A DNA stretch of 64,000 bases from an uncultured Bacillaceae bacterium (GCA_947497585.1 CANMHG010000013.1:13568-77567); one strand, 5' to 3'. Positions 1-13,006 are shown, counted from the stretch's first letter. Notes: generated from the letters alone by a model not told the origin. Numbers and translations are program-made.

Positions 1-8
1 ATCACTAT

Positions 9-935
9 TTATTCCCCCTGATTAATGGTTGATATGATTAATGAATATAATTCTTGAGCCGTAAATCGGTTTATTGGTCTACGTATTTGGTAAAGTTGAA
101 TATTATTGACAAAACTTGTCGTAAAAGTAAAATGCCATTCCAATAAGCCAGAAGGTTCTAGAAAGAAATTACGGTAGGTATGATAATACAATACTTGCAA
201 GCGTTCTAGACTATTAATAGGTTGTATATCAATAAGTTCATTTTCCGTCTTTGTTAATTCATACACTCCAGCTAGTGGGAGTTGCTTAGTTGCAAATTGA
301 GAATGAACTGGTATGGCAAACTTTGTTTCTCGCTCAATAATCGGGCGCAAACCGTCGAGCTCGATTCCAAATTCCTCAAGACTATTTTTCCATAGCTTTT
401 GTTGTGGATAAGCTGGTGTTACGACAGGAACATTTCCTTCAGTAAGCATAACTGGTATGACATCATCACTAATAAGCTGGTGGCCCCTATTTAGAAATGC
501 TGTTGCAAGCGTTGACTTTCCTGCACCAGAATCGCCAACAATTGCATATGCCTTTCCATTAACTTCTATTGCACTACCATGTAATGGTAGTATTTTTCGT
601 TGTAATAAGATTAACCCCATACATGTACCAAGTATATATAGCCTTAGCTGGTCTTCATGTACATTCTCCATTGGTGATACTAATATTTCTTTTCCTTCTT
701 TTACTAGGAAAATAGCTACATTTGGTATTTTAAACATTATCGTATCTTTATCCATACAGTAATAATTATTGTTTTCGCCTACTTCAAACCAGTCTTTTGA
801 TAGATTAGAATATTTAATTTCAATATCCACTTGAAATCCTTGTTTTTGAACTGAATAGAGTTCAGGTAGAAGGATTTCACTACTTATATTTAACCCAAAC
901 GCTGTGAAATCTGCACTTAATAATGTATCTTTCAT
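9..935 (-). CDS. Lasso peptide kinase, HPr kinase-like (PadeK type)
   Basis: LHGSA motif and Walker A GDSGAGKST; xxSDD motif; directly downstream of a lasso precursor ending in Ser, as in paeninodin-type clusters. Confidence 0.85.
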   Translation of the reverse strand: MKDTLLSADFTAFGLNISSEILLPELYSVQKQGFQVDIEIKYSNLSKDWFEVGENNNYYCMDKDTIMFKIPNVAIFLVKEGKEILVSPMENVHEDQLRLYILGTCMGLILLQRKILPLHGSAIEVNGKAYAIVGDSGAGKSTLATAFLNRGHQLISDDVIPVMLTEGNVPVVTPAYPQQKLWKNSLEEFGIELDGLRPIIERETKFAIPVHSQFATKQLPLAGVYELTKTENELIDIQPINSLERLQVLYYHTYRNFFLEPSGLLEWHFTFTTSFVNNIQLYQIRRPINRFTAQELYSLIISTINQGE

Positions 936-969
936 ATTTCCCCCTAGTTAAAGAGATAGATATACTTGC

Positions 970-1002
970 AACCCTTATATAAATGATATTTATATAAGGG
1001 TT
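970..1002 (-). promoter_or_regulatory. Perfect 15-bp stem-loop between precursor A1 and kinase (attenuator or mRNA stabiliser)
   Basis: AACCCTTATATAAAT-gat-ATTTATATAAGGGTT. Confidence 0.6.
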
Positions 1003-1022
1003 ATAATAATAGTTAATATTAA

Positions 1023-1196
1023 TTAGCTACCACCTAATAAATCAGGATGTACACATGCTTTATTTATCTTACCGTCGGGGTCAATATTTGGATGCGAACT
1101 CGTGCAATAACTATCTGAAACTGCTTCACCATCACCACCCATTGTCATACCAATATTAAGTACTTCTAAAACTGGCTGTTTCCATGATTTTCTCAT
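1023..1196 (-). CDS. Lasso peptide precursor A1, 57 aa: MRKSWKQPVLEVLNIGMTM / GGDGEAVSDSYCTSSHPNIDPDGKINKACVHPDLLGGS
   Basis: Hand-translated, not in ORF track. WxxPxLEVL leader, Thr at -2, Gly1, Asp9, C-terminal Ser; ATG overlaps the cyclase stop (TAATG). Confidence 0.92.
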   Translation of the reverse strand: MRKSWKQPVLEVLNIGMTMGGDGEAVSDSYCTSSHPNIDPDGKINKACVHPDLLGGS

Positions 1197-3163
1197 TAAA
1201 TCACCCCCTTTCTTCTAGTCTTTCTAATAAATCGATAGAGAACTAGAGCACGTGTTAACACTCTAAAATCATCTTTTAATACGAAATCCTGTTGAGGTAC
1301 CTCACTGTACTTAGGGATTAAATCTTTTATTACTTCTATATTGATTAGATCTTCTATTATAGGATCTCTAATAAGTTGTTGAAGTTCATCAATAAATGCC
1401 TTCCAAGTAGGAGTCATTCGATGTATTAGGTCTGCAGACTGCATACCTCGGCTTTTGTTGTTTAACCTAACCATATCTGGAAGATAGTGTCGGGTTGCTC
1501 GCCTAATTAATGAGCGATCCAACCCTCCTTTTGTATATTGTTCATTAGGTATAGATAAACAAAAACGTATCACTCTAATATCATTAGTTGGGTCTCGGTC
1601 CCATAATGAATATCTTAATGACAATTTCGTTGTTGCATTTCCTGTCTTATTCCAAGAATATAGTTTTGCAAAATGCTCATTTCTACCAATAAATGGTTTT
1701 CGACTAGATTCTTCTGTATGATTAACTCCATAATTTGCTAGCTTTTCATTTATGTTTGTTTTATTTGCTAATAAAGGATGAAGTAAGGATGGGAATCGGT
1801 AATCATCCTGATTATCATTATTAAAAATATTTGTAATAGAAGGTAAACTCCTCTTCACCAAAACTGGAAGAATAGTTGATTTTCCTGTATTGAAATTTTC
1901 ACAATACAGATCTAATTCTCTATATAATCTAAGCCACCTAAGATTCCTAAATAAATCTGTATAGTAATCTAAGTTGCACATGATAGAACCCCAAGAGATT
2001 GAAAAATTCCCTCTTGCTCCATTCAAGAGTACTTTAATTCCACTTTGCTGTGCCTTCTCATTTATCCCCATCAACCAAAACGAGTTTTCAAAAAATTTAT
2101 ATGGCATTTCCATAATATCTAGAAACTCGTCTAACTCTGTTAGTGGATTCCTGCCTTCAAAGTTTAAATAATGGTCAGTAATATTCCCCACTTGATTAAC
2201 GGTTTCCTTAATAAACGGTCGTTCATCAGCAATTAGATATTTTGAAGTCCAATCAACAAAGTCATTTGAGGGTATGTAACTAAAGGTGTATAATCTTTTG
2301 TTCTCTTTACACAGTTCCTTAGAGGCAAAACTAACGACAGATCCTGAATCTAAACCTCCACTTAGCTGCGCACCAACATTCCCAAAGGTACGTAGTCTAT
2401 CCTTAACAGCTCTTTCAAAAACTTCTCTAAAGGCCTCTTCATATTCACTATCTGATTTAAGTTTAATCATCTTGCAATCAACAACATTGCAATATTGAGA
2501 AATTCTTACTTTACCATTCTTAATAGAGATGGAATGTGCCGGAGGTATTTGCTTAATATCTTTATAGACAGTGGAGAGTGTATCGACTGATTCCACCATA
2601 CTAGGTATTGCTAAAAACTCTGCTAACCATTCCTCATTAAGCTCTTTACTAACATAGGGAAGAGAAAACAATGGTTCAATAGTCGTGGAAAAGGCAAATC
2701 GATTGTAGTCATTGAAAAAATATAGAGTTCTTGCTCCAGAAAAATCTCTTGCTCCAAAGAGAGTCCGCTCAATTTCATCCCATATGACGAATACAAAATC
2801 CCCTACCAAATGCTTTGGAGAGTCTTCTCCCCACTTTCTGTATGCTAGTAAAATTAATTTACTATCCGTCATTAGTGCTCTTTTCTCTTTTCGAACATCT
2901 AGCTTTTCAAACAATTCATTACGGTTATCAATAATACAATCTGATGTTATATATAGATTAGTTTCATAGTCATAATACGGTAGTTTTTCATTAACTGATT
3001 CAGGAGTGATCCATTGTGCGTGGCAACCAAAGAACAGATTCCCAGTATGAATCATATGGATATCATCCGCAGGAAACTGCTTGAACACCCTCATTAGTTC
3101 TTTAGTTTGTACAAGGTTAATAGGCTCTTGACTAAAATGAATTAGACCAGCGATTGCACTCAT
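1196..3163 (-). CDS. Lasso peptide cyclase C1 (asparagine synthetase-like, PadeC type)
   Basis: Starts MSAIAG, lacking the AsnB catalytic Cys; LSGGLDSG ATP motif; adjacent to precursor; start reassigned to ATG 3163 after GGAGG. Confidence 0.9.
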   Translation of the reverse strand: MSAIAGLIHFSQEPINLVQTKELMRVFKQFPADDIHMIHTGNLFFGCHAQWITPESVNEKLPYYDYETNLYITSDCIIDNRNELFEKLDVRKEKRALMTDSKLILLAYRKWGEDSPKHLVGDFVFVIWDEIERTLFGARDFSGARTLYFFNDYNRFAFSTTIEPLFSLPYVSKELNEEWLAEFLAIPSMVESVDTLSTVYKDIKQIPPAHSISIKNGKVRISQYCNVVDCKMIKLKSDSEYEEAFREVFERAVKDRLRTFGNVGAQLSGGLDSGSVVSFASKELCKENKRLYTFSYIPSNDFVDWTSKYLIADERPFIKETVNQVGNITDHYLNFEGRNPLTELDEFLDIMEMPYKFFENSFWLMGINEKAQQSGIKVLLNGARGNFSISWGSIMCNLDYYTDLFRNLRWLRLYRELDLYCENFNTGKSTILPVLVKRSLPSITNIFNNDNQDDYRFPSLLHPLLANKTNINEKLANYGVNHTEESSRKPFIGRNEHFAKLYSWNKTGNATTKLSLRYSLWDRDPTNDIRVIRFCLSIPNEQYTKGGLDRSLIRRATRHYLPDMVRLNNKSRGMQSADLIHRMTPTWKAFIDELQQLIRDPIIEDLINIEVIKDLIPKYSEVPQQDFVLKDDFRVLTRALVLYRFIRKTRRKGVI

Positions 3164-3210
3164 GATATCCTCCAACCCAAAGATAAATTAACTATACAGC
3201 ACACCCTTTT

Positions 3211-3226
3211 GTTCATTATAATGAAC
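3211..3226. promoter_or_regulatory. SinR-type operator upstream of cyclase C1
   Basis: Perfect 16-bp palindrome GTTCATTATAATGAAC. Confidence 0.65.
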
Positions 3227-3252
3227 ACTACCTCAAAAAAATTTCACTGTAA

Positions 3253-4476
3253 CTATTGTTCGTTCTTTATAAGTATGGACATTGATGACAGATTCGTAAG
3301 ATTATTTTTTGTTAAATAATCAATTATTGGATTTTTATCAAACGTATGATGTTCCACATTTCTTGAAAATGTTTGAAATAGCTTTACTACTATACTAACG
3401 TTAAAGTCTTCTTTATGATAAGCCAATAATCCTATAGTCTTCATTTTCAATAATGAATAATTGACAACTAGCATACTATACATTTCAAATACATCATTTT
3501 CTTTTGCTACTGGAAATAGATTTTTAAACATGTAGTTCACTAGGTAATTTTCAAAAATATATTCATGTTCTCTTATAAAGGGCTTAAAAAATGTTTCATA
3601 GGTATTCATGTAATCTTCTATACTCGACTCGTCTAGAGTTGGACCAGTAAATTTTATTCCATCTAATGATTCCATTACGCATTCCAAGTATCTTTTATCT
3701 TTAAGACCCGTGAAAATACCTATATCTACAATCTTCCTTAGAATCTGTATCTGATTATTTAAATCTAAGGGCAAATCATGGATCCTGTTAATTATTTCAC
3801 CACTATCAATTAATTGTTCGTAATTTCCTATTATATCAGTTATTTCATTATCTACTAACTTTATTAGGATTTCTTCCATAAACACTCCCAGTATTAGTAA
3901 CCGATCAGTCAAACTATACTTTCTATTTTGTACTATTTTTATTGAAAAATCTCTTAGTTCTAGAAAATAGTAGCGTTCTTTATGGGTACTTTCATATTTA
4001 GATGAATTTATCTTTCTTGATACCAAGTGACGGGTACTGGTTGATTCATTTATTTCTTCAAACTGAATCCCATTTGAATTGAGTAGCACAGTACGAGCTG
4101 CCTCTGGACAAGACACTGTTAATGAACTCTCAAGTCCCCCATTTACAAGGGATGTCACACGAGGGTATGTTGCACATAAATTTGAAAGATAGCCTTCTCC
4201 TTTATCAATATGCACACTACATAATTTTTCCTCAGTAAGTAAAGGACATAACGATTGTGAATTTAGAATAATCTCAGCAAACCATTCTTTGTTTGATTTA
4301 AACTCTATTTTTTTCAGAGATTTCTTTAACTTTTCATTTGATGATACCTGGTATTTCTCATAGGTATCTTGGTCAATTGTAATCCTCCATCCTGAGCAAC
4401 ATGTATCTTCACATGAAGAACCAACACATGAGAATTGTTTTAGATATTGAGGGACTCGAATGGTACGAGTTGACAT
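3253..4476 (-). CDS. FliB-family (flagellin lysine N-methylase-like) Cys-rich Fe-S protein
   Basis: FSCVGSSCEDTCCSGWRITID, CPLL..LCSVH, CATYPR, SCPEA; C-terminal ENYLVNYMF..LFP pattern typical of FliB. Confidence 0.75.
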   Translation of the reverse strand: MSTRTIRVPQYLKQFSCVGSSCEDTCCSGWRITIDQDTYEKYQVSSNEKLKKSLKKIEFKSNKEWFAEIILNSQSLCPLLTEEKLCSVHIDKGEGYLSNLCATYPRVTSLVNGGLESSLTVSCPEAARTVLLNSNGIQFEEINESTSTRHLVSRKINSSKYESTHKERYYFLELRDFSIKIVQNRKYSLTDRLLILGVFMEEILIKLVDNEITDIIGNYEQLIDSGEIINRIHDLPLDLNNQIQILRKIVDIGIFTGLKDKRYLECVMESLDGIKFTGPTLDESSIEDYMNTYETFFKPFIREHEYIFENYLVNYMFKNLFPVAKENDVFEMYSMLVVNYSLLKMKTIGLLAYHKEDFNVSIVVKLFQTFSRNVEHHTFDKNPIIDYLTKNNLTNLSSMSILIKNEQ

Positions 4477-4548
4477 TCATTCTTTCCTTTCTGGGTAAGT
4501 ATTACTTTTACACTTACTCCTTTATTGTAACTTACCTACGGAACGTCT

Positions 4549-4646
4549 TTTCACTATAAAGAACTAGTTTGACAATATCTCGTCAAAATTATTCTTTATT
4601 AAGAACAATATATGTTAAAAATATCATCTTAAAGCTTAGGTGTCAA
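4549..4646 (-). promoter_or_regulatory. sigma-A promoter for the FliB-like gene with two downstream SinR-type boxes
   Basis: TTGACA (4641-4646), 17 nt, TGa-TATTTT (4618-4623); boxes at 4591-4606 and 4549-4564. Confidence 0.65.
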
Positions 4647-4715
4647 TAATAAATGGGCTTTTAAAAAGGAAAAAGGAAAATTATTATTGGGGGTAAGAGG
4701 GACTCTATAGACAAG

Positions 4716-4739
4716 GCCCCTAATTATATTTCTAGGGGC
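4716..4739 (-). terminator. Stem-loop after precursor A2
   Basis: GCCCCTA-N10-TAGGGGC; no strong U-tract. Confidence 0.4.
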
Positions 4740-4767
4740 TAGGTTTAAGAATGCTGGGTATAGAAAC

Positions 4768-4917
4768 TTAACTATCAATATCGTTTCCCCATGTTAAATC
4801 ACTAAATCTTGTGTTAGCAGGGAATGAATCATCGATAAAGTCTCCGGGTTGTGTATTCGCCATCGTCAAGTTTACATCTAGTACCTCAAGAACAGGCTTT
4901 ATCCATTCTTTTTTCAA
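4768..4917 (-). CDS. Lasso peptide precursor A2, 49 aa: MKKEWIKPVLEVLDVNLTM / ANTQPGDFIDDSFPANTRFSDLTWGNDIDS
   Basis: Hand-translated, TTG start after AAAGGAGGTG; paeninodin-like leader WxxPxLEVLDV..TM; C-terminal Ser; immediately after cyclase C2. Confidence 0.92.
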   Translation of the reverse strand: MKKEWIKPVLEVLDVNLTMANTQPGDFIDDSFPANTRFSDLTWGNDIDS

Positions 4918-4932
4918 ACCTATCACCTCCTT

Positions 4933-6876
4933 TCAGGTAAACATTTTATTAATAAATTTATATACTATAAGACTTCTCATTAATATCCTATAATCAGGGT
5001 CGGTCGCGTTTTCTACTCGTGGGCCATTTTCAGCCTTACTAATTGCTACATTTAAGACTTTGGCGTCTATAAATTCAAAAATAAGGTTATCTTTCTTTAG
5101 TTGTTGTATGTCCTTTATATATAATCCCCAATTTGGTTTCATTCGATGAACCCAATCTGCTCCTTGAACTCCACGAATATGTTGGTTTAGTCTGATTTTA
5201 TCTGGCAAATAACTCTGTGTAGCTCTTCGAATAAGAGCACGGTCCATACCATTTTGAACATACTGGTCTTCAGGTAGTGATAAGCAAAAACGAATAACAC
5301 GAATATCATTTGTTGGATCTCGTTTCCAAAGAGAATAACGCAAAGAAAATTTTGTGGAAACTGTATTTGTAGCATTCCAATGAAATACATCTTCAAAGTG
5401 ATTTTTTCTTTGCTTAAAAATATTATCAGTAGAGTACCATCCCGTTTCATCCATACCAAATTTTCTAAGTTTATCGAATACCCTAGTTCGATTTGCAAAT
5501 TCTTGGTTAATTATCTTGGGACTTTTATATTGAGTGGTAAGTGGAAACAACCGATCAATCATAGGAAACGCTTCTCTTACAATAATGGGTAACCTTCTTA
5601 ATCTAGCACCGCCTATATTTTGACTATAATAATTTAATTCTTTAATAAGGCGAAACCACTTCATTTTTTTAAGTAGTATTGCATAATATTCTATTGCCGA
5701 CCCCCAAGAAACACCTAAGTTCCCTCTTCCGCCATTTAAAAGAACTCCAACATTCTCTTTTTGAGCATTCTCAAACATTCCCTTTATCCAAAACGAGTTT
5801 TCAAAAAACTTGTAGGGCATCTCCATTGTTTCTAAAAAATCATCCAATTCCGTGTATGGGCTTTTCCCTTCAAAATCTAAATAATGTGCCTTGACATTTC
5901 CTACATAATTAACTGTTGATTCAATGAAAGGTCGTTCATTAGGCATTAAATATTTTGGGGTGTAATCTATAAAATCAGTGGTTGGAATATAACTAAAAGT
6001 TTGTAATTCTTTTCCTAGTAGTTGTAATTGTTTTGCTGCAAAGCTTACAACTGCTCCAGAATCAAGGCCTCCACTTAATTGAGCCCCCACTTTATGAATA
6101 GTACGTAATCGAGATTTAACAGCTTTACTAAAGACTTCTTGGAAGGCTTCTACATACTCTTCATTAGAATTTAATTTTAATGGTTTGCTGGCATATAAAT
6201 TACAATATCTCTTAATCTTTACCGAATCTCTAGTAATTGAAATAAAATGAGCTGGTGGAATTTGTTTTATATCTTGGTAGGGTGTCATAGAGGAATCAAT
6301 TGTATCTATCACAGTAGTAATTGCTAAATACTCTGCTAACCATTTTTCATTTAATTGTCTCGTTACATCAGGCTGTGTAAGTAACGGTTCTATTGTTGTA
6401 CAAAAAGAAAAGTTCTGATGATTATGACGGTAATAAAGTGTTCTTCCCCCTGAAAAGTCTCTTGCTGCAAATATAGAGTGTGCCCTTTCGTCCCAAATGA
6501 CATATGCAAAGTCACCAACTAGATATTTTGGTGATTCCTCACCCCACTTTTCGTAGCCTCGCAAAATTAACTGACTGTCAGGTATCGATTTCTCTAGTAT
6601 CGGATCGATCTTCAGTAGACCAAATAGTTCTTCACGATTATCAATAATTGCATCAGATACTATTGCGAGCTTTCTCTCGTAATCATAGAAAGGGAGGCTT
6701 TCACCGATTGATTCAGGAGTAATCCATTGCATATGACAACCTAAGAAGACTGTATTATTATTCCACGTTTGAATGTCATCGGCTGGATATCTTTTTAAGG
6801 ACTCCATTAATCTAGTACCATTTTCTATTCGAATAGGTTGCTTATTTAGATGTATAATTCCTGTTATTGCACTCAT
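4933..6876 (-). CDS. Lasso peptide cyclase C2 (asparagine synthetase-like, PadeC type)
   Basis: MSAITG start without catalytic Cys; LSGGLDSG; collinear with C1 (MPYKFFENSFW, RDPTNDIRVIRFCLS shared). Confidence 0.9.
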   Translation of the reverse strand: MSAITGIIHLNKQPIRIENGTRLMESLKRYPADDIQTWNNNTVFLGCHMQWITPESIGESLPFYDYERKLAIVSDAIIDNREELFGLLKIDPILEKSIPDSQLILRGYEKWGEESPKYLVGDFAYVIWDERAHSIFAARDFSGGRTLYYRHNHQNFSFCTTIEPLLTQPDVTRQLNEKWLAEYLAITTVIDTIDSSMTPYQDIKQIPPAHFISITRDSVKIKRYCNLYASKPLKLNSNEEYVEAFQEVFSKAVKSRLRTIHKVGAQLSGGLDSGAVVSFAAKQLQLLGKELQTFSYIPTTDFIDYTPKYLMPNERPFIESTVNYVGNVKAHYLDFEGKSPYTELDDFLETMEMPYKFFENSFWIKGMFENAQKENVGVLLNGGRGNLGVSWGSAIEYYAILLKKMKWFRLIKELNYYSQNIGGARLRRLPIIVREAFPMIDRLFPLTTQYKSPKIINQEFANRTRVFDKLRKFGMDETGWYSTDNIFKQRKNHFEDVFHWNATNTVSTKFSLRYSLWKRDPTNDIRVIRFCLSLPEDQYVQNGMDRALIRRATQSYLPDKIRLNQHIRGVQGADWVHRMKPNWGLYIKDIQQLKKDNLIFEFIDAKVLNVAISKAENGPRVENATDPDYRILMRSLIVYKFINKMFT

Positions 6877-6904
6877 AATTTTTTCTCCCTGACTAACTTA
6901 TGAT

Positions 6905-7044
6905 TTTCACTATAAAGAACAATAGTTAATTTAAACACAAGGATAATTTATAAATTTCAAGTTAATTATCTTTAGTTCCAATAATTTTGTTCTTTATAAG
7001 GAACATCTTCATTTAAAGTTAACACTTTTTCTGAACAGTGTCAA
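6905..7044 (-). promoter_or_regulatory. sigma-A promoter for cyclase C2 with two downstream SinR-type boxes
   Basis: TTGACA (7039-7044), 17 nt, TGt-TAACTT (7016-7021); boxes at 6989-7004 and 6905-6920. Confidence 0.65.
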
Positions 7045-7180: not shown

Positions 7181-8260
7181 TTATAAAACGATATGGTCGA
7201 GGGTTCCTCTTAGAACTTCATTCTCTGTAGTCAATACCGGTTCTCTATCCATATCCCTAATCCATAGTAACCCATCCGGAAGAGGATTAAACTTCGTATC
7301 AAGCGCAGGAAACTTATTGTACAGAATAATATCTTTATAGATCTCAGGCATATTTAATCCTGCTTCTGTAAAGAAATAACATGTCGTAAAAAAGCGCATA
7401 TTTATCTCAGTAGGGTTAGGGAAATCATTTCTGTCATACGTCATATCCACACCGTATACTCCATGAGGCTTCTTATCAATCGCATATATTGTTTCCATAG
7501 CTACTTTGTTCACTGTTTCATCTGAGTAAGTCTCACCTACCCCAGTTATTCCAGTCACACCTGATAGTGTCCGATTACCAAATCCCCAGGACTTTCTTCT
7601 TCTAGTTTGGGCTACAACTAGCTCGCCTTCATACCAAATAGATAACCAAGTAACCGTCTTATCAGACTGGAGTAACTCTGAAGCAGTAAAACTTCCCCAA
7701 CCGTTATAGATATCTATCCAGTTTTGAGCAAACTCATAATCATTTGTAGGTAGTGCTCCTCTTCCACCAGCACCTACTGTAGATCTTAACCAGATTTTCC
7801 CCTCTTCATCTCCTAGATCTTGAAAAGCTTGTTTTAATTCATGTTTATCTCGAATAGGCAGTGTTTTTGGCACCTTAATACCTGTAGCTTCCCAAACCTT
7901 ATAGGATTTATATTTATCTGTACATGCTTCAATCACATCATGATCTGGCATAAATAACTTTGTACCTGTAGCTGTGATTTCATCTCGAAATCTTGAGGCT
8001 TCGAGTATTTCTCTATCATTCATAAAAACAGCTAAACTAGGTTTATCATTATTCATAATACCCAGTAATTCTTTTTTATAATCTTTTCCGAATGCATATT
8101 CATATGGGATGTGTCGCTTAGTTTCAGCCTTCGAAGTATACAAATTATAAGGATTCCTTGATAACCCTATTACTTCGTTCCTAATTTCCGCCTTATTCCA
8201 CGATTTTATAACATTCTCTGCTGGCGAAACCCCGACATCAGTTATTAGTATTTTCTCCAT
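7181..8260 (-). CDS. ATP-grasp (carboxylate-amine ligase-like) protein
   Basis: DKYKSY..W, IKVPKT, GAGGRG loop, GVDMT...TEINMRF pattern. Confidence 0.75.
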   Translation of the reverse strand: MEKILITDVGVSPAENVIKSWNKAEIRNEVIGLSRNPYNLYTSKAETKRHIPYEYAFGKDYKKELLGIMNNDKPSLAVFMNDREILEASRFRDEITATGTKLFMPDHDVIEACTDKYKSYKVWEATGIKVPKTLPIRDKHELKQAFQDLGDEEGKIWLRSTVGAGGRGALPTNDYEFAQNWIDIYNGWGSFTASELLQSDKTVTWLSIWYEGELVVAQTRRRKSWGFGNRTLSGVTGITGVGETYSDETVNKVAMETIYAIDKKPHGVYGVDMTYDRNDFPNPTEINMRFFTTCYFFTEAGLNMPEIYKDIILYNKFPALDTKFNPLPDGLLWIRDMDREPVLTTENEVLRGTLDHIVL

Positions 8261-8278
8261 TTCAGCACCTCTTTATAA

Positions 8279-8893
8279 TTATAGATTCCTAGATATTCCC
8301 TTGTACCTTTCCATACTGAAGTGATTCTTTGAACTTACTCCTTCTTTTTTAAATACCTTTTTTATTGTTACTAGTAAAATTTTCATATCCAGCCAAACAG
8401 ATTGATTATTAACATACCAGATATCTAATTCAAATTTTTCTTCCCAGTTAATTGCATTCCGTCCGTTTATTTGAGCCCAGCCAGTTATCCCGGGTTTGAC
8501 TTCATGTCTTCGAGCCTGTTCTTCGGTATACAAAGGTAAATACTCCATTAATAATGGACGGGGACCTACTAAACTTAAATCACCCTTAATGACATTGAAT
8601 AGTTGTGGTAACTCATCTAAACTATATTTACGTAACAAGATTCCTAGTTTGGTTAATCTGTATTTTCCAGGTAATAGATTGCCTTGATTATCTTTCTTAT
8701 CATTCATTGTTCTAAACTTATATATATATAAAGGCTTTCCATATAAACCTGGTCGGACTTGTTTAAATAATATTGGTGAACCCATCTTTATATAAATAAT
8801 TGCGGAAATCAGAATTAAAAATGGCGAAAAAATAATGACTAATGATAGGGCACCAAATAAATCTATTAATCTTTTCAAAGTATCCACCTCCAT
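8279..8893 (-). CDS. Priming sugar-phosphate transferase (EpsL/PglC family)
   Basis: KRLIDL, FKQVRPG, YKFRTM, SLDELPQL, VGPRP, KPGITGWAQ. Confidence 0.92.
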   Translation of the reverse strand: MEVDTLKRLIDLFGALSLVIIFSPFLILISAIIYIKMGSPILFKQVRPGLYGKPLYIYKFRTMNDKKDNQGNLLPGKYRLTKLGILLRKYSLDELPQLFNVIKGDLSLVGPRPLLMEYLPLYTEEQARRHEVKPGITGWAQINGRNAINWEEKFELDIWYVNNQSVWLDMKILLVTIKKVFKKEGVSSKNHFSMERYKGISRNL

Positions 8894-8919
8894 AACATTA
8901 CTTTGAAAAATATTTTAAG

Positions 8920-9750
8920 TTAATTTATATCTCTTTCTCTAACTCGGTTTAAGGGATGATTGTAGAGGAAAAAGTATTGTCTTCTCTTTTCGATATATTT
9001 AGGAGTCATGATCTTTATTTCTTTTCCTTCTACTACATTGATTGCATTACTTTGTAGGAATTCTCTATACCTTGATGAATAATGTAGTTCTATAAAATCA
9101 TAGGCTTCAGTTAACTCGAACTTTCGCCTTGTGTAATGATGTGCATCAGATGCTACGAAATGAACAAGTTCATGATCTAGGAGATGTCTAGAAAAGTTTT
9201 TCAACCTATTCCCATGCAGTCCTAATATACTTGCAGCTGTTACTTGTATAAGTATTCCACTTTGTACAAGCTTATAAATTTCAGAGGGATTTTTTCTTAG
9301 AATTCTATTTCTCTCCGGGTGAGCAAGAATTGGAAGAAACCCCATTTCTTTTAACTGGGAGAAAACATCTACTATATATGATGGATAATTTTTAGAATGT
9401 GGCTCCATCAATAAGTATTTTCCTGTGTTATTTAATGTTAAAAAACTATCGAGCTTTTCTTCTAAATCATATTGAATTTCTTCATGTAAATGAAATTCAA
9501 TTCCTGGCATTACAACTAAAGGGATATTTTTCTCTTGCAATAATTGATTTAGTTTATCAACCATTTTTATTATAGTAGCAGGATCATTTTCGTAAAAATA
9601 CTGATGGTGTTGATGTTTATGATGTGGAGTTGCAATCACATGTGTTATTCCTGTCTCTACGGCTTGTTTGGCCAACAATATTGCTTCTTCCCAATCATGT
9701 GGACCATCATCTAGTCCAGGTAAAATGTGGTTATGAATGTCCACAATCAT
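8920..9750 (-). CDS. PHP-family tyrosine-protein phosphatase (CpsB/YwqE type)
   Basis: DIHNHILPGLDDG, ATPHH, AHPERN, ASDAH; start reassigned to ATG 9750 after AAGGAG. Confidence 0.9.
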   Translation of the reverse strand: MIVDIHNHILPGLDDGPHDWEEAILLAKQAVETGITHVIATPHHKHQHHQYFYENDPATIIKMVDKLNQLLQEKNIPLVVMPGIEFHLHEEIQYDLEEKLDSFLTLNNTGKYLLMEPHSKNYPSYIVDVFSQLKEMGFLPILAHPERNRILRKNPSEIYKLVQSGILIQVTAASILGLHGNRLKNFSRHLLDHELVHFVASDAHHYTRRKFELTEAYDFIELHYSSRYREFLQSNAINVVEGKEIKIMTPKYIEKRRQYFFLYNHPLNRVRERDIN

Positions 9751-9800
9751 TTTCTTGCTCCTTTCGAAAAACACTAACAAACCCCCACAAAGAACAACAG

Positions 9801-9816
9801 GTTCTTTATAAAGAAC
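9801..9816. promoter_or_regulatory. SinR-type operator
   Basis: Perfect palindrome GTTCTTTATAAAGAAC upstream of the phosphatase. Confidence 0.65.
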
Positions 9817-9847
9817 AATACTATACTATTACTTTTATTGCAATACC

Positions 9848-10603
9848 TTATTCATAAATTGCATTTGCATATTTTCTCTTAAAAAGACATACTCCTGCAT
9901 TTTCTAATATTTTTACCATTAATTCAGAATTAGGATAGTTTATTTCTTTATAAAGATTTATTACCTTATTCAAATCATATTGAACTCTCACTATTGAAGT
10001 TTGAACACAATCTTCCTCAATATCAACGAGAGCATAGGATGATTGATTCACACCATCAAATGGAAGCCCAACACTTCCTATATTTATTATACATTTCCCA
10101 TTTATGTATCTTATATATGGCTTATGTATATGTGCATAGATATATATATTTGCATTATTGCTCATTAACTTTTCAGTTAGTAAATCATCACTTTCTTGTG
10201 GTGAAACGATTTCAAATAAGCTTTTAGGTGTGGCATGGAATGCATGAATTTTAGCTCTACCAAATTCTAATTCTAATTCGGTTGGTAGATTTTCAAGGTA
10301 GCTAACATCTTTAGACTCTAGTTTAGAGACAGTCCATTCTCTTTCGGTACTCATTATTTCTAATGCTGAATCAGGAACCTCACCTTGCCTAATTCCACGA
10401 ACCACCCATTCATCTGCGTTACCTTTTATTACTTCGGTATTTAAGGTTCTAACTAAATCAAGTGACTTTTTAGGTTCTGGTCCCCTAAAGCACAGGTCTC
10501 CTAAAACATAAACTTTGTCAACGTTTCTTTCTTTAATATCCTTCAATACCGCTTCTAATGCTGTTGCATTTCCATGAATATCTGAAATAAATGCTAGTTT
10601 CAT
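9848..10603 (-). CDS. Metallophosphoesterase
   Basis: SDIHGN, LGDL, GNAD, FHA, AHIH, GSVG motifs. Confidence 0.88.
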   Translation of the reverse strand: MKLAFISDIHGNATALEAVLKDIKERNVDKVYVLGDLCFRGPEPKKSLDLVRTLNTEVIKGNADEWVVRGIRQGEVPDSALEIMSTEREWTVSKLESKDVSYLENLPTELELEFGRAKIHAFHATPKSLFEIVSPQESDDLLTEKLMSNNANIYIYAHIHKPYIRYINGKCIINIGSVGLPFDGVNQSSYALVDIEEDCVQTSIVRVQYDLNKVINLYKEINYPNSELMVKILENAGVCLFKRKYANAIYE

Positions 10604-10633
10604 TTGTTGTACCCCATTTCTAAAAATACTTTA

Positions 10634-10665
10634 AGGAGATGGTCCCCTTTTTTAGACCACCTCCT
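10634..10665 (-). terminator. Internal terminator-like hairpin
   Basis: On the minus strand AGGAGGTGGTC-N10-GACCATCTCCT (11 bp with one G.U), then an A/U-rich tract. Confidence 0.5.
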
Positions 10666-10722
10666 ATGAATTTTAGACTTTATACCACATTCGTATACTT
10701 AGAATTTCTTTATTAGATTATT

Positions 10723-11874
10723 TTAGATATTTATTGGTGCCTTATTAATTGTTTCATACCACGCAGTTAATGCCAGGCTTTCAGGTAACTCAACATCATC
10801 AAAAGTTATCATTTCTCCTGCTTCAACTTCCCTTTTCAACACTGCATTTACAAGCAACCCAATCGGAACATGGTTAGCATTGGTAGCAATTTTAACTGCA
10901 ACTCCTCTTACTTGGAAACTTCCAATGCCTTTCTCGATTGTCTCACCTAGTTGGAGTGTTCTTTTAGCAATTGCTGCAACACTAATAGTAGGATTTTCAC
11001 CATTGTTTAATAGAACTCCACCACCATTAATGACACGTCTAATCGTTTTCATAATTTCTAAATGACATAGATGGTAGTTTTGTAGAATTGTGTAGTAAGG
11101 ACCTTCTCCCATTTTATAGTAACGAAGGGCATCTTTTTGTCGAATATCGTGTTCTGCTGTGATAAAAACTCCTGGAGGAGCTTTAGGTGCTAAAACATAT
11201 TCACAAATTGGATAACCTAAACTATTAGCCTCTATTGCTAACTCCTCTCCAGTTTCATTTAAATTATCTGAACTCGGAGAAAGTAAGCCATTAACTGCTA
11301 TTCCCGCCCCAAGACCATTTGCTACTAGTGCTTGTTCAATTTGCACTTTTGTCCCATCAGTGAAGGATGTTGTCATATCAAGTCTTACACCATTTCGATT
11401 TGACCAATATTCCATATCCTCACGTTTTGGATCTAGGTTTAGAAATCCTTTAATATTTCCATAAACCAACGGCTTGAAGCCCATTTGAACAACATTTTCA
11501 TGTAGTGAAGCTAAGCAACCTGGTTGATCTCCTTCAGCCTCCGTAATAAATCCTCTTCTAGCAAAATATGAACCGGTTGTTACTTGAAGCTCTGCATTCA
11601 TTGTTACAACTGGTTTAGATGCTTTGATGGCTTTATCAATGACTTCCGTTCCATAGATAACATCCCCACTACATTCAACAATTAAGTCGCACTCTTCAAT
11701 AAACTCTTCCATAGAATTTGTAAGAACTTCGGAAAATGGATATTCCATAGTGTTTATATCACGGCGAGTGAGCACCTTTGATAAAATTAAGTCGGTTTGC
11801 TTCTCCACTTCAAAGGCTAAGCCCTTACCAATTAAACCTGTTCCAGCTATACCTATTCTAGTTAATTTATCCAC
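10723..11874 (-). CDS. NAD(P)-dependent oxidoreductase, homoserine dehydrogenase-like with C-terminal SAF domain
   Basis: GIAGTGLIG, AEGDQPG, DGTKVQIE, C-terminal SAF-like segment; GTG start after GGAGG. Confidence 0.75.
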   Translation of the reverse strand: MDKLTRIGIAGTGLIGKGLAFEVEKQTDLILSKVLTRRDINTMEYPFSEVLTNSMEEFIEECDLIVECSGDVIYGTEVIDKAIKASKPVVTMNAELQVTTGSYFARRGFITEAEGDQPGCLASLHENVVQMGFKPLVYGNIKGFLNLDPKREDMEYWSNRNGVRLDMTTSFTDGTKVQIEQALVANGLGAGIAVNGLLSPSSDNLNETGEELAIEANSLGYPICEYVLAPKAPPGVFITAEHDIRQKDALRYYKMGEGPYYTILQNYHLCHLEIMKTIRRVINGGGVLLNNGENPTISVAAIAKRTLQLGETIEKGIGSFQVRGVAVKIATNANHVPIGLLVNAVLKREVEAGEMITFDDVELPESLALTAWYETINKAPINI

Positions 11875-11909
11875 TAATATTCCTCCATCTGGTACCATGA
11901 CCACAAACT

Positions 11910-11925
11910 ATTCATTATAACGAAC
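11910..11925. promoter_or_regulatory. Degenerate SinR-type operator
   Basis: ATTCATTATAACGAAC in a short intergenic gap. Confidence 0.45.
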
Positions 11926-11941
11926 AATTCCGCAAAAAAAA

Positions 11942-13006
11942 TTATTTTGTCGAAACAAGTGTATCCACTGTTTCACTACTTTCAATTTCTAAAATTCCAC
12001 CATACATATCTACCTGTTTCATGATGCTTTGCCATTTAATTAATTCTTTATACCAGTTTAAGGTTATTGTTTGTTCTGACTTCTTAAGGTTACCACTCTC
12101 TAATGCTTTATAAATTTGTAAAGCCCCGTCAGCTGCGGTATATTTTGCTTCCCAATTTAAAAGTTTTTCGATTTTATCAAAATTCACACGATATGAACGA
12201 TGATCTGGGTCACCGTACCACTCAATCTTTACTTCAATAGGTAGCGCTTCTGCAATTTCTTCCGCTAAAGGTCCTAATTGATAGTTGTTTCGGTTTGATC
12301 CTACATTCAATATTTCACCATTAATTATTTGTCCATCAGCTTCTAGTAATAAGCACATAACATCAGTTGTATCTTCAACGTGTACCATAGGTCTCCACTG
12401 TGAGCCATCTCTCATTAATGGAATAACACCATTCTCCCATGCACCATAAGTCATTCCATTGATGGCTAAGTCAAATCTCATTCTTGGTGAATACCCATAA
12501 ACAGTTGCTTGCCTCATTACCACAACAGTAAAATCTTGATCAGCTAACGGAAGAACTCCTTGTTCAGCTTTTTCATTTGCTTTTGCATAAACGGTTAATG
12601 GATTAGTAGGTGATGTTTCGTCAACAATTACGTCCTTATCCTGGAATCCATAAAGACTGCATGAAGATGGTAAAATGTAACGCTCTACCCCCATTTTCTT
12701 CGCTAAAGTTGCTGTATTTACTCTAGATAAGTGATTCACTTCATATGTAACCTCTTTAAACAATTCCCCACTCGGATCGTTCGAAATTGCTACTAAATCA
12801 ATAACTGCATCAACATCTACAAAATGTTCTTCCTTTAATCTTCTACAATCTTCATGAACAATTGTTAGATTAGGATGTGGTTGAAGCTTATCGACACCAA
12901 AGTAAAAACGATCAACCGCTTTAACCTCATAGCCTTTTGCTAACAACTTTGGAACTAAAATGCTACCAATATAGCCACCTGCACCTGTAACAAGTATATT
13001 TTTCAT
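11942..13006 (-). CDS. Extended SDR, NAD-dependent epimerase/dehydratase
   Basis: TGAGGYIG, ISNDP, R.ATVYG.SPRMRFDL; YAKAN in place of YxxxK. Confidence 0.85.
   Translation of the reverse strand: MKNILVTGAGGYIGSILVPKLLAKGYEVKAVDRFYFGVDKLQPHPNLTIVHEDCRRLKEEHFVDVDAVIDLVAISNDPSGELFKEVTYEVNHLSRVNTATLAKKMGVERYILPSSCSLYGFQDKDVIVDETSPTNPLTVYAKANEKAEQGVLPLADQDFTVVVMRQATVYGYSPRMRFDLAINGMTYGAWENGVIPLMRDGSQWRPMVHVEDTTDVMCLLLEADGQIINGEILNVGSNRNNYQLGPLAEEIAEALPIEVKIEWYGDPDHRSYRVNFDKIEKLLNWEAKYTAADGALQIYKALESGNLKKSEQTITLNWYKELIKWQSIMKQVDMYGGILEIESSETVDTLVSTK

Follow-up and report, generated by a model that had tools for sequence, protein, structure and literature searches.

A window of 64,000 nucleotides (nt) from an uncultured Bacillaceae bacterium with a genome of 4.17 Mb (G000:C13:13568-77567, the whole stretch of DNA analyzed) was examined together with its left flank on the same contig, C13. 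The data pointed to a lasso peptide cluster of the paeninodin/pseudomycoidin type, in which two cyclase-precursor modules probably share one set of accessory enzymes. From the gene content, it is very likely that this shared machinery serves two lasso products. To judge from its genes, the window carries the 5' two-thirds of the cluster. The gene order over window and flank was C2-A2-FliB-C1-A1-K-B1-B2-N-D, ten genes at C13:9776-20443, and then a VanZ-family gene. These genes are given below, with positions counted in the window unless marked C13.

4933-6876, minus strand: C2, upstream lasso cyclase, 647 amino acids (aa); NF033535 395 bits; Asn_synthase and GATase_7 domains
4768-4917, minus strand: A2, precursor of 49 aa, leader MKKEWIKPVLEVLDVNLTM, core ANTQPGDFIDDSFPANTRFSDLTWGNDIDS; NF033524 41.4 bits
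3253-4476, minus strand: FliB-like [4Fe-4S] lysine-N-methylase homologue, 407 aa; NF038110 306.5 bits
1196-3163, minus strand: C1, kinase-proximal lasso cyclase, 655 aa; NF033535 384 bits; Asn_synthase/GATase domains
1023-1196, minus strand: A1, precursor of 57 aa, leader MRKSWKQPVLEVLNIGMTM, core GGDGEAVSDSYCTSSHPNIDPDGKINKACVHPDLLGGS; NF033524 41.7 bits
9-935, minus strand: K, HPr-kinase-like peptide Ser kinase, 308 aa; PF07475 (Hpr_kinase_C) 40 bits; Walker A GDSGAGKS
C13:13264-13572, minus strand: B1, PqqD-like recognition element (RRE) for peptides that are made on ribosomes and then modified post-translationally (RiPPs), first codon at window 1-5; NF033536 122.5 bits
C13:12775-13239, minus strand: B2, transglutaminase-like leader peptidase; NF033537 98.6 bits
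C13:11584-12771, minus strand: N, PsmN-type nucleotidyltransferase; PF14907 202 bits; SSDLD motif
C13:9776-11572, minus strand: D, ABC exporter
C13:9216-9692, minus strand: VanZ-family gene

The initial annotation of this DNA had placed the six window genes in the order given here, and had named a frameshifted or inactive C2 as a finding that would speak against its reading. All six genes were intact and on the minus strand. C2 was full-length, and the PP-loop motif SGGLDS was intact in both cyclases, which were 52% identical over their full length. For both cyclases NF033535 was the best family, and PF00733 scored above its cut-off. C1 was given a TTG start at 3175 by the open reading frame (ORF) lister (1196-3175), but the ATG at 3163 is likelier, because GGAGG precedes it and it aligns with residue 1 of C2. 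The A1 ATG and the C1 stop codon overlapped as TAATG. A2 starts with a TTG 7 nt after the ribosome-binding site GGAGG, in place of which the lister took a GTG at 4926 to give 52 aa. Both precursors, annotated at 57 and 49 aa, scored above the 27-bit cut-off of the precursor profile NF033524 ('paeninodin family lasso peptide').

Extension of the contig to the left, proposed in the initial annotation as a check and here made over 13.5 kb, gave B1, B2, N, and the ABC exporter in one copy each, and so placed the shared RRE and peptidase where they had been expected. B1 begins 3 nt past the kinase stop codon and matched the solved 'lasso peptide biosynthesis PqqD family chaperone' 9x90_B with E = 1.3e-27. 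The cut-offs for B1 (NF033536), B2 (NF033537), and the kinase (PF07475) were 80, 33, and 33.3 bits, respectively. Active-site motifs were seen in the ORF translations: Walker A in K, DxD in N, and Cys/His in B2. The whole genome held one B2 and two lasso-type cyclases. A six-frame scan of the 4.17-Mb genome with a leader-motif regular expression gave no third convincing precursor beside A1 and A2, and no oxidoreductase gene was present in the cluster. Asn-synthase-like genes on contigs C8, C4, and C3 were considered as extra cyclases and rejected, with 25-209 bits to NF033535 versus 343-347; no lasso B2 or precursor was found on these contigs, and from their sequences they were taken for ordinary asparagine synthases.

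The leaders of the two precursors were compared with the motif [Y/W]xxPx[L/V/I] plus Thr at -2, as defined in PMC13381572. Both leaders have the form W(-15)xxP(-12)xL(-10)EVL followed by T(-2)M, with W-15 KQP VL in A1 and W-15 IKP VL in A2, and W-15, P-12, L-10, and T-2 are contacts in the crystal structure of PbaB1 with its leader (PMC13381572). The paeninodin-type leaders and the unrelated, Ser-ending cores reported by the initial annotation were confirmed. The C-terminal Ser was present in 57 of 58 related cores.

In the proposed pathway, the single B1 RRE would bind both precursors, as is expected from their common W(-15)xxPxL / T(-2) leader, and would pass them to the single B2 cysteine peptidase. 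C1 would cyclize A1 between Gly1 and Asp9, and C2 would cyclize A2 with Asp7 or Asp10 as the acceptor. The single HPrK-like kinase would phosphorylate the C-terminal Ser of both A1 and A2, the PsmN-like protein would put a hexose onto the phosphate, and the ABC exporter would secrete both products. The FliB-like [4Fe-4S]/S-adenosylmethionine enzyme, presumably recruited, would N-methylate Lys24 and Lys27 in the G-K-I-N-K segment of A1. Two different phosphorylated lasso peptides had been predicted by the initial annotation. The shared kinase and the Ser-ending cores agree with that prediction, but the PsmN-type gene in the cluster implies a hexose too, which means that the products probably bear a hexose on the phosphate and not the phosphate alone. 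The analogy is with pseudomycoidin, whose C-terminal Ser is phosphorylated by PsmK and where addition of hexose to the phosphate requires PsmN (PMC6993621). The psm system tolerates a loss of B. For the A1 product, the calculated monoisotopic mass is 3793.695 as a lasso and 3791.679 with the disulfide, rising by 79.966 with each phosphate, 162.053 with each hexose, and 14.016 with each methyl group; for the A2 product it is 3297.449, or 3377.415 with phosphate and 3539.468 with phosphate and hexose.

The paeninodin order C-A-K-B1-B2-D, with one cyclase, had served as the reference in the initial annotation. That order was given correctly for paeninodin, but the locus is nearer to pseudomycoidin, C-A-K-B1-B2-N-D. 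The paeninodin cluster was reportedly described by Zhu et al. in 2016 (J Biol Chem). The gene order of psmCAKB1B2ND of Bacillus pseudomycoides DSM 12442 (PMC6993621) is identical to C1-A1-K-B1-B2-N-D here, and the two clusters share the HPrK-like kinase, the C-terminal Ser, and the PF14907 gene between B2 and D. However, an extra cyclase-precursor module and the FliB-like gene lie upstream in the window, and A1 has a core of 38 aa with two Cys in place of an Ala1-Asp9 paeninodin-like core. With padeCAKB1B2D of Paenibacillus dendritiformis C454 (PMC9266682) the locus has in common the WxxP leader, the split B1/B2, a PadeK-type Ser kinase, and NF033524 precursors. The paeninodin cluster has a single cyclase and a single precursor and lacks both N and FliB, and neither A1 nor A2 resembles its core, AGPG..PD..QPDPD..HY(D)S. 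The felipeptin precursors filA1/filA2 with FilC (PMC7689547) are likewise one locus for two lasso peptides with shared leader recognition and peptidase; however, FilC serves both precursors there, whereas in the window A1 and A2 are each provided with a separate cyclase, and the two cyclases differ in lineage. Altogether, the locus shows every lasso and paeninodin/pseudomycoidin hallmark that sequence can test, except a conserved acceptor at positions 7-9 in A2.

The distribution of this architecture was investigated in a family sample (28 genomes of the same GTDB family as the window) and in an order sample (401 Bacillales genomes drawn evenly across the order). Such cyclases were present in 13 of the 28 family genomes, and a tandem pair in 6. 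The arrangement C2-A2-...-FliB-C1-A1-K-B1-B2-N-D also occurred in three genomes of a sister genus (G006, G015, and G020, two of them named Fredinandcohnia), with identities to the window of 64-65% for C2, 61-62% for C1, 77-81% for A1, and 72-83% for A2. In the order sample, 90 of the 401 genomes had a paeninodin-type cyclase and 22 of these 90 had two, which lay on one contig and no more than about 5 kb apart in 20 of the 22. Twenty loci were retrieved from this sample (17 with tandem cyclases and 3 with a single one). Nearly every twin case had the order C-A-C-A-K-B1-B2-N-D with each accessory gene in single copy, and the kinase was single-copy in every twin cluster examined. By these comparisons the twin design is widespread and old in Bacillales and not peculiar to the window, a point that the initial annotation had missed, as it had the hexosylation and the FliB-like gene as a member of the pathway. 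A literature search for clusters with two lasso cyclases returned nothing relevant in the searchable library, which is not proof of novelty; as far as the literature could be searched, the two-cyclase architecture is widespread yet uncharacterized.

We also analyzed whether each cyclase belongs to the precursor next to it, as the initial annotation had proposed. A tree of 20 cyclases was built with a careful method and a tree of 57 cyclases with a quick method, with Shimodaira-Hasegawa-like approximate likelihood ratio test (SH-aLRT) support. The kinase-proximal cyclases formed one clade in the 20-cyclase tree (support 100/99). In the 57-cyclase tree, all 24 cyclases beside cores with two Cys (di-Cys cores), C1 included, formed one clade (SH-aLRT 100), and the 10 cyclases beside paeninodin-like cores formed another (support 96). 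The core-type label changed 6 times on this tree versus 29.7 times in shuffles, and none of 200 shuffles was as low. The di-Cys module combined with upstream modules of three lineages, and each time the upstream cyclase matched the core type of its own neighbour. Thus the C-A pairs behave as exchangeable cassettes, as dedicated pairing predicts. PsmC cyclizes a leaderless core (PMC6993621), which argues that cyclases of this family read the core. On these grounds dedicated cyclase-precursor pairing is likely, and we hold it with some confidence; the cyclase phylogeny, a check that the initial annotation had proposed, tracks the adjacent core type, and this support is comparative and not biochemical proof.

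It is rather improbable, by comparison, that the paralogues C1 and C2 are redundant in part, each able to cyclize both cores, with the duplication kept for dosage or robustness. The full-length identity and common motifs of the two cyclases and the nearly identical leaders of A1 and A2 would fit such redundancy, and some lasso cyclases are said to tolerate many core variants (fusilassin work cited in PMC8498205). However, cyclase lineage tracked the adjacent core type over 57 cyclases and many families, the upstream cyclase lineage changed whenever the upstream core type did while the di-Cys module stayed unchanged, and the A1 and A2 cores differ in residue 1, acceptor position, and length.

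Three points weigh against our reading of the locus. Co-phylogeny is also expected if C-A pairs are inherited as linked units without strict specificity. Both cyclases (384 and 395 bits) fall short of the strict 525-bit cut-off of NF033535, which is an exception model. The ring acceptor of A2 is ambiguous among D7, D10, and D11. If dedicated pairing is true, twin clusters with one RRE/peptidase and two cyclases are a natural system for studying how lasso cyclases select their cores, which has a bearing on an unsolved question in the engineering of lasso peptides. From the comparison, strict pairing of each C with its A would be expected, together with exchange of C-A cassettes as modules.

The cores themselves fell into distinct types. 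The kinase-proximal cores were long, with Asp9 and exactly two Cys, for example NGPGNANADCFDV...SNASC...S and, as in A1, GG.G.A..DSYC...C...S. In all 24 kinase-proximal cores the two Cys lay outside the predicted ring. The A1 core has 38 aa, and its Asp9, Cys12, Cys29, Lys24, Lys27, and C-terminal Ser are kept in orthologues. From its sequence, A1 probably has a Cys12-Cys29 disulfide in the tail. Two Cys outside the ring make such a putative tail disulfide comparable with class IV lasso peptides (LP2006, felipeptins, pandonodin; PMC9266682); however, the named members of that class include the actinobacterial felipeptins, and the review mentions no phosphorylation of these members. Within the di-Cys family (A1 and 23 relatives), one Cys stood just past the ring and the other 17-31 residues later. 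This family was paired with a second module in most sampled loci, and many of its cores start with Asn1, which has only lately been reported at this position, in metanodin.

The upstream cores were free of Cys and of three types: paeninodin-like AGPG..PD.VQPDPD..HYS, ASTV.GPYTDEAYVPG..RFTS, and the type of A2, AN...GD..D..[FY]P.GT...DLTWS. Asp9 was present in all di-Cys and all paeninodin-like cores. The acidic candidates in A2 (ANTQPGDFIDD...) are Asp7, Asp10, and Asp11. Homologous cores did not keep Asp7: SNPHSGNALDQ has Asn there, and the ASTV.GPYTDE family has Pro. In 19 A2- and ASTV-type cores, position 10 was acidic throughout, three residues before an aromatic one, and 9 of the 19 had no acidic residue at positions 7-9. 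By conservation, the A2 acceptor is more probably Asp10 than Asp7. With conservation of acidity at position 10 and not 7-9, either a 10-residue ring would be closed or the leader would be cleaved one position past the site given by the Thr(-2) rule. Natural lasso rings are said to have 7-9 residues, and a 10-residue ring is known only from an engineered fusilassin substrate (PMC8498205). The conservation hints that the A2-type clade closes a 10-residue ring. If this is true, the unusual ring size of A2 is a mechanistic reason for a separate cyclase. Cleavage of A2-type leaders with Thr3 as the -2 residue was considered and rejected, since the new residue 1 would be Pro or variable. Characterized lasso peptides from Firmicutes are few (PMC11664905); the di-Cys kinase-proximal and position-10-acceptor families are widespread in Bacillales, and none of the peptides named in that work belongs to either.

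Next to C1 lies the FliB-like gene. Its product matched the flagellin-methylase equivalog model NF038110 (cut-off 85 bits) over 367 of 373 profile positions. The motif CX4CX3CC, which binds the essential [4Fe-4S] cluster in Salmonella FliB (PMC8598068), was intact as C17-VGSS-C22-EDT-C26-C27 at the same residue numbers as in the Salmonella enzyme, and eight Cys were conserved in total. Sequence and motif thus agree with the FliB family, but the flagellin linkage is lacking: unlike Salmonella FliB, the protein is encoded away from flagellin, within a RiPP cluster; it falls in a long-branch clade of its own, and its predicted substrate is a peptide of roughly 38 aa with G-K-x-x-K. No solved structure related to FliB was found, and for the cyclase only a distant amidotransferase.

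Lasso-embedded FliBs formed one clade (100/100) with a long stem (0.76-0.84), nested among FliBs of flagellar loci, and all copies in lasso clusters kept CX4CX3CC. The clade spans at least five genera, with members 43-52% identical to the window copy, and includes one from another family, an Anaerobacillus metagenome-assembled genome with the order C2(ASTV type)-A-FliB-C1-A1. Outside the family, homologues at most 45% identical sit in flagellar loci; hag-FliB-flaG-fliD-fliS loci hold the FliB relatives of G016, G017, Paenibacillus, and Sporosarcina. Among 5.8 billion proteins searched, all matches at least 46% identical and with a known neighbourhood were directly upstream of a lasso cyclase. 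These loci were FliB-C-A-K-B1-B2-N-D in Evansella clarkii, FliB-C-A-K-B1-B2/N-D in Paenibacillus sp. sgz302251, and two metagenome contigs. The lasso FliB lies directly 5' of the cyclase in twin and single-module clusters alike, the latter being those of Evansella clarkii, Paenibacillus sp., and one metagenome contig.

The cores downstream of FliB-C had G-K-x-x-K in 8 of 8 cases, versus 0 of 53 others, among them the A2 cores encoded upstream in these clusters. The segment had the form DGKINKAC in di-Cys cores, A1 among them, and HGKSSKNHD or LGKSSKSQD in Paenibacillus-type cores. The FliB-linked cyclases fell in two distinct cyclase clades, so the GKxxK association is not one inherited accident. 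The FliB-like gene is, on this comparative evidence, very probably part of the pathway and not a passenger. We lean slightly towards a tailoring role for this FliB lineage, in which it would methylate the GKxxK lysines, here Lys24 and Lys27 of A1. Evenly balanced is the fuller proposal, also drawn from sequence comparison, that FliB was captured once by paeninodin-type clusters and now N-methylates both GKxxK lysines, including the ring lysines of the Paenibacillus HGKSSK/LGKSSK cores.

Two findings argue the other way. In G015, FliB is reduced to a 63-aa remnant while A1 keeps GKINK; since FliB has decayed there with the cluster kept, it would be accessory and dispensable, at least in that genome. 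The window FliB is, moreover, the sole FliB homologue in a genome that bears flagellin genes, on another contig, and could still methylate flagellin. The gene might then encode a true methylase of flagellin lysines and, as a passenger or a housekeeping gene moved from elsewhere, leave the lasso peptides untouched. The strength of the match to NF038110 and the position of close outgroups (43-45% identity) in hag-FliB-flaG-fliD-fliS loci also favour this explanation, as does the loss in G015. However, FliB was wholly absent from 22 of the 28 family genomes (it stood in the canonical hag-FliB-flaG-fliD-fliS locus in 2 and in a twin lasso cluster, the remnant included, in 4), the embedded FliBs are one old clade whose position 5' of the cyclase is kept in at least five genera, and the GKxxK association is perfect. 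We therefore regard a pure flagellin methylase as possible but rather unlikely. A dual role, on both flagellin and the lasso peptide, is conceivable.

If A1 is methylated by the FliB-like enzyme, lysine methylation would be a new post-translational modification of lasso peptides; it is absent from the modifications in a 2022 review (PMC9266682). A literature search for FliB and lasso peptides together found no paper in the searchable library, which is not proof of novelty. The short G-K-x-x-K peptide would also be a small, defined, and tractable substrate for FliB, whose [4Fe-4S]-dependent methyl transfer is unresolved (PMC8598068).

The signals that may control transcription of the two modules were as follows.

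4716-4739, minus strand: terminator-like GC-rich hairpin just after A2, 8-bp stem with 5 GC pairs; weak, fold z-score not significant
4618-4646, minus strand: promoter-like site ahead of FliB, TTGACA-17-TATTTT with TG; 10/12 consensus matches, from consensus only
969-1003, minus strand: 16-bp perfect hairpin between A1 and K; -18.7 kcal/mol, z = -3.8, 0/200 shuffles as good
4548-4564, minus strand: 17-nt box GTTCTTTATAGTGAAAA upstream of FliB, containing the SinR-type GTTCTYT
6904-6920, minus strand: second 17-nt box GTTCTTTATAGTGAAAA, identical in sequence, 27 nt upstream of the C2 start
3262-3271, plus strand: GTTCTTTATA box within the FliB 3' end, some 90 nt upstream of C1
6989-6998, plus strand: GTTCTTTATA, inverted partner of the C2-side GTTCTTTATAGTGAAAA box
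9801-9816: palindrome GTTCTTTATAAAGAAC, SinR-operator-like

The box GTTCTTTATAGTGAAAA, at up to 2 mismatches, had 3 matches in the window versus 0.11 expected, and GTTCTTTATA occurred 11 times versus 0.6 expected. The core GTTCTTT of GTTCTTTATAGTGAAAA fits the published SinR operator consensus GTTCTYT. Within 200 nt upstream of the first cyclase, 34 Bacillales lasso loci showed an enrichment of about 11-fold for this 7-mer. From these signals, weak as they are, there are probably two transcription units, C2-A2 and FliB-C1-A1-K-...-D, each behind the same SinR-type box. However, promoter and terminator consensus matches were no more frequent in the window than in shuffles, which counts against assigning the units by such matches. 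The SinR-type boxes suggest that the lasso modules are co-regulated with biofilm and matrix genes; if this is true, they tie the peptides to biofilm/matrix regulation and give a lead to their biological role. The hairpin at 969-1003 has no U-tract after it and may be a transcript stabilizer or attenuator, by analogy with hairpins after RiPP precursor genes.

The apparent terminator of the C2-A2 unit and the 290-nt gap to the rest could also mean that a single peptide is made because the second module, a cassette either inserted recently or no longer functional, is silent or in decay; module content does turn over fast between species of one genus. However, both cyclases and both precursors are full-length with their motifs kept, the same regulatory 17-mer stands ahead of both units, and another genus has orthologues of both modules, about 60-83% identical, an argument for long purifying selection on both. 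A silent module is therefore very improbable, and two active modules remain our reading of the locus.

Some further observations concern the surroundings of the cluster. To the left of the VanZ-family gene lie a gene for a DUF5658 protein and then, on the opposite strand, one for a SinR/SlrR-like regulator (C13:8210-8557). A VanZ-family gene followed the ABC exporter in most paeninodin-type clusters examined and may have an immunity or accessory role. Three species of the window's genus have three versions of the lasso cluster beside the same VanZ-DUF5658 flank: the twin cluster of the window, a single ASTV-type cluster (L036 of G002), and a single paeninodin-like cluster (L042 of G003). To judge from these sequences, this shows rapid cassette turnover at one locus. 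The two single clusters also carry a divergent K/RRE/D/N set, like the LPP clusters of Popov et al.

Directly upstream of C2, at 7181-13006 in the window, is a polysaccharide-type locus with genes for an ATP-grasp protein, a sugar transferase, a PHP-type phosphatase, a dehydrogenase, and an epimerase. Of these, the gene for the ATP-grasp protein was syntenic and 78-85% identical in loci of the Fredinandcohnia genus, and polysaccharide genes adjoining related clusters were also remarked on by Popov et al. Metallophosphoesterase-like genes recurred in or beside the clusters (L031-L033, in the gap between A2 and FliB; L090:18527-19549; and the window at 9848-10603). The copy inserted between A2 and FliB in the three Fredinandcohnia-genus genomes encodes a membrane-anchored metallophosphoesterase of 332 aa, and such enzymes might act on the phosphorylated peptides.

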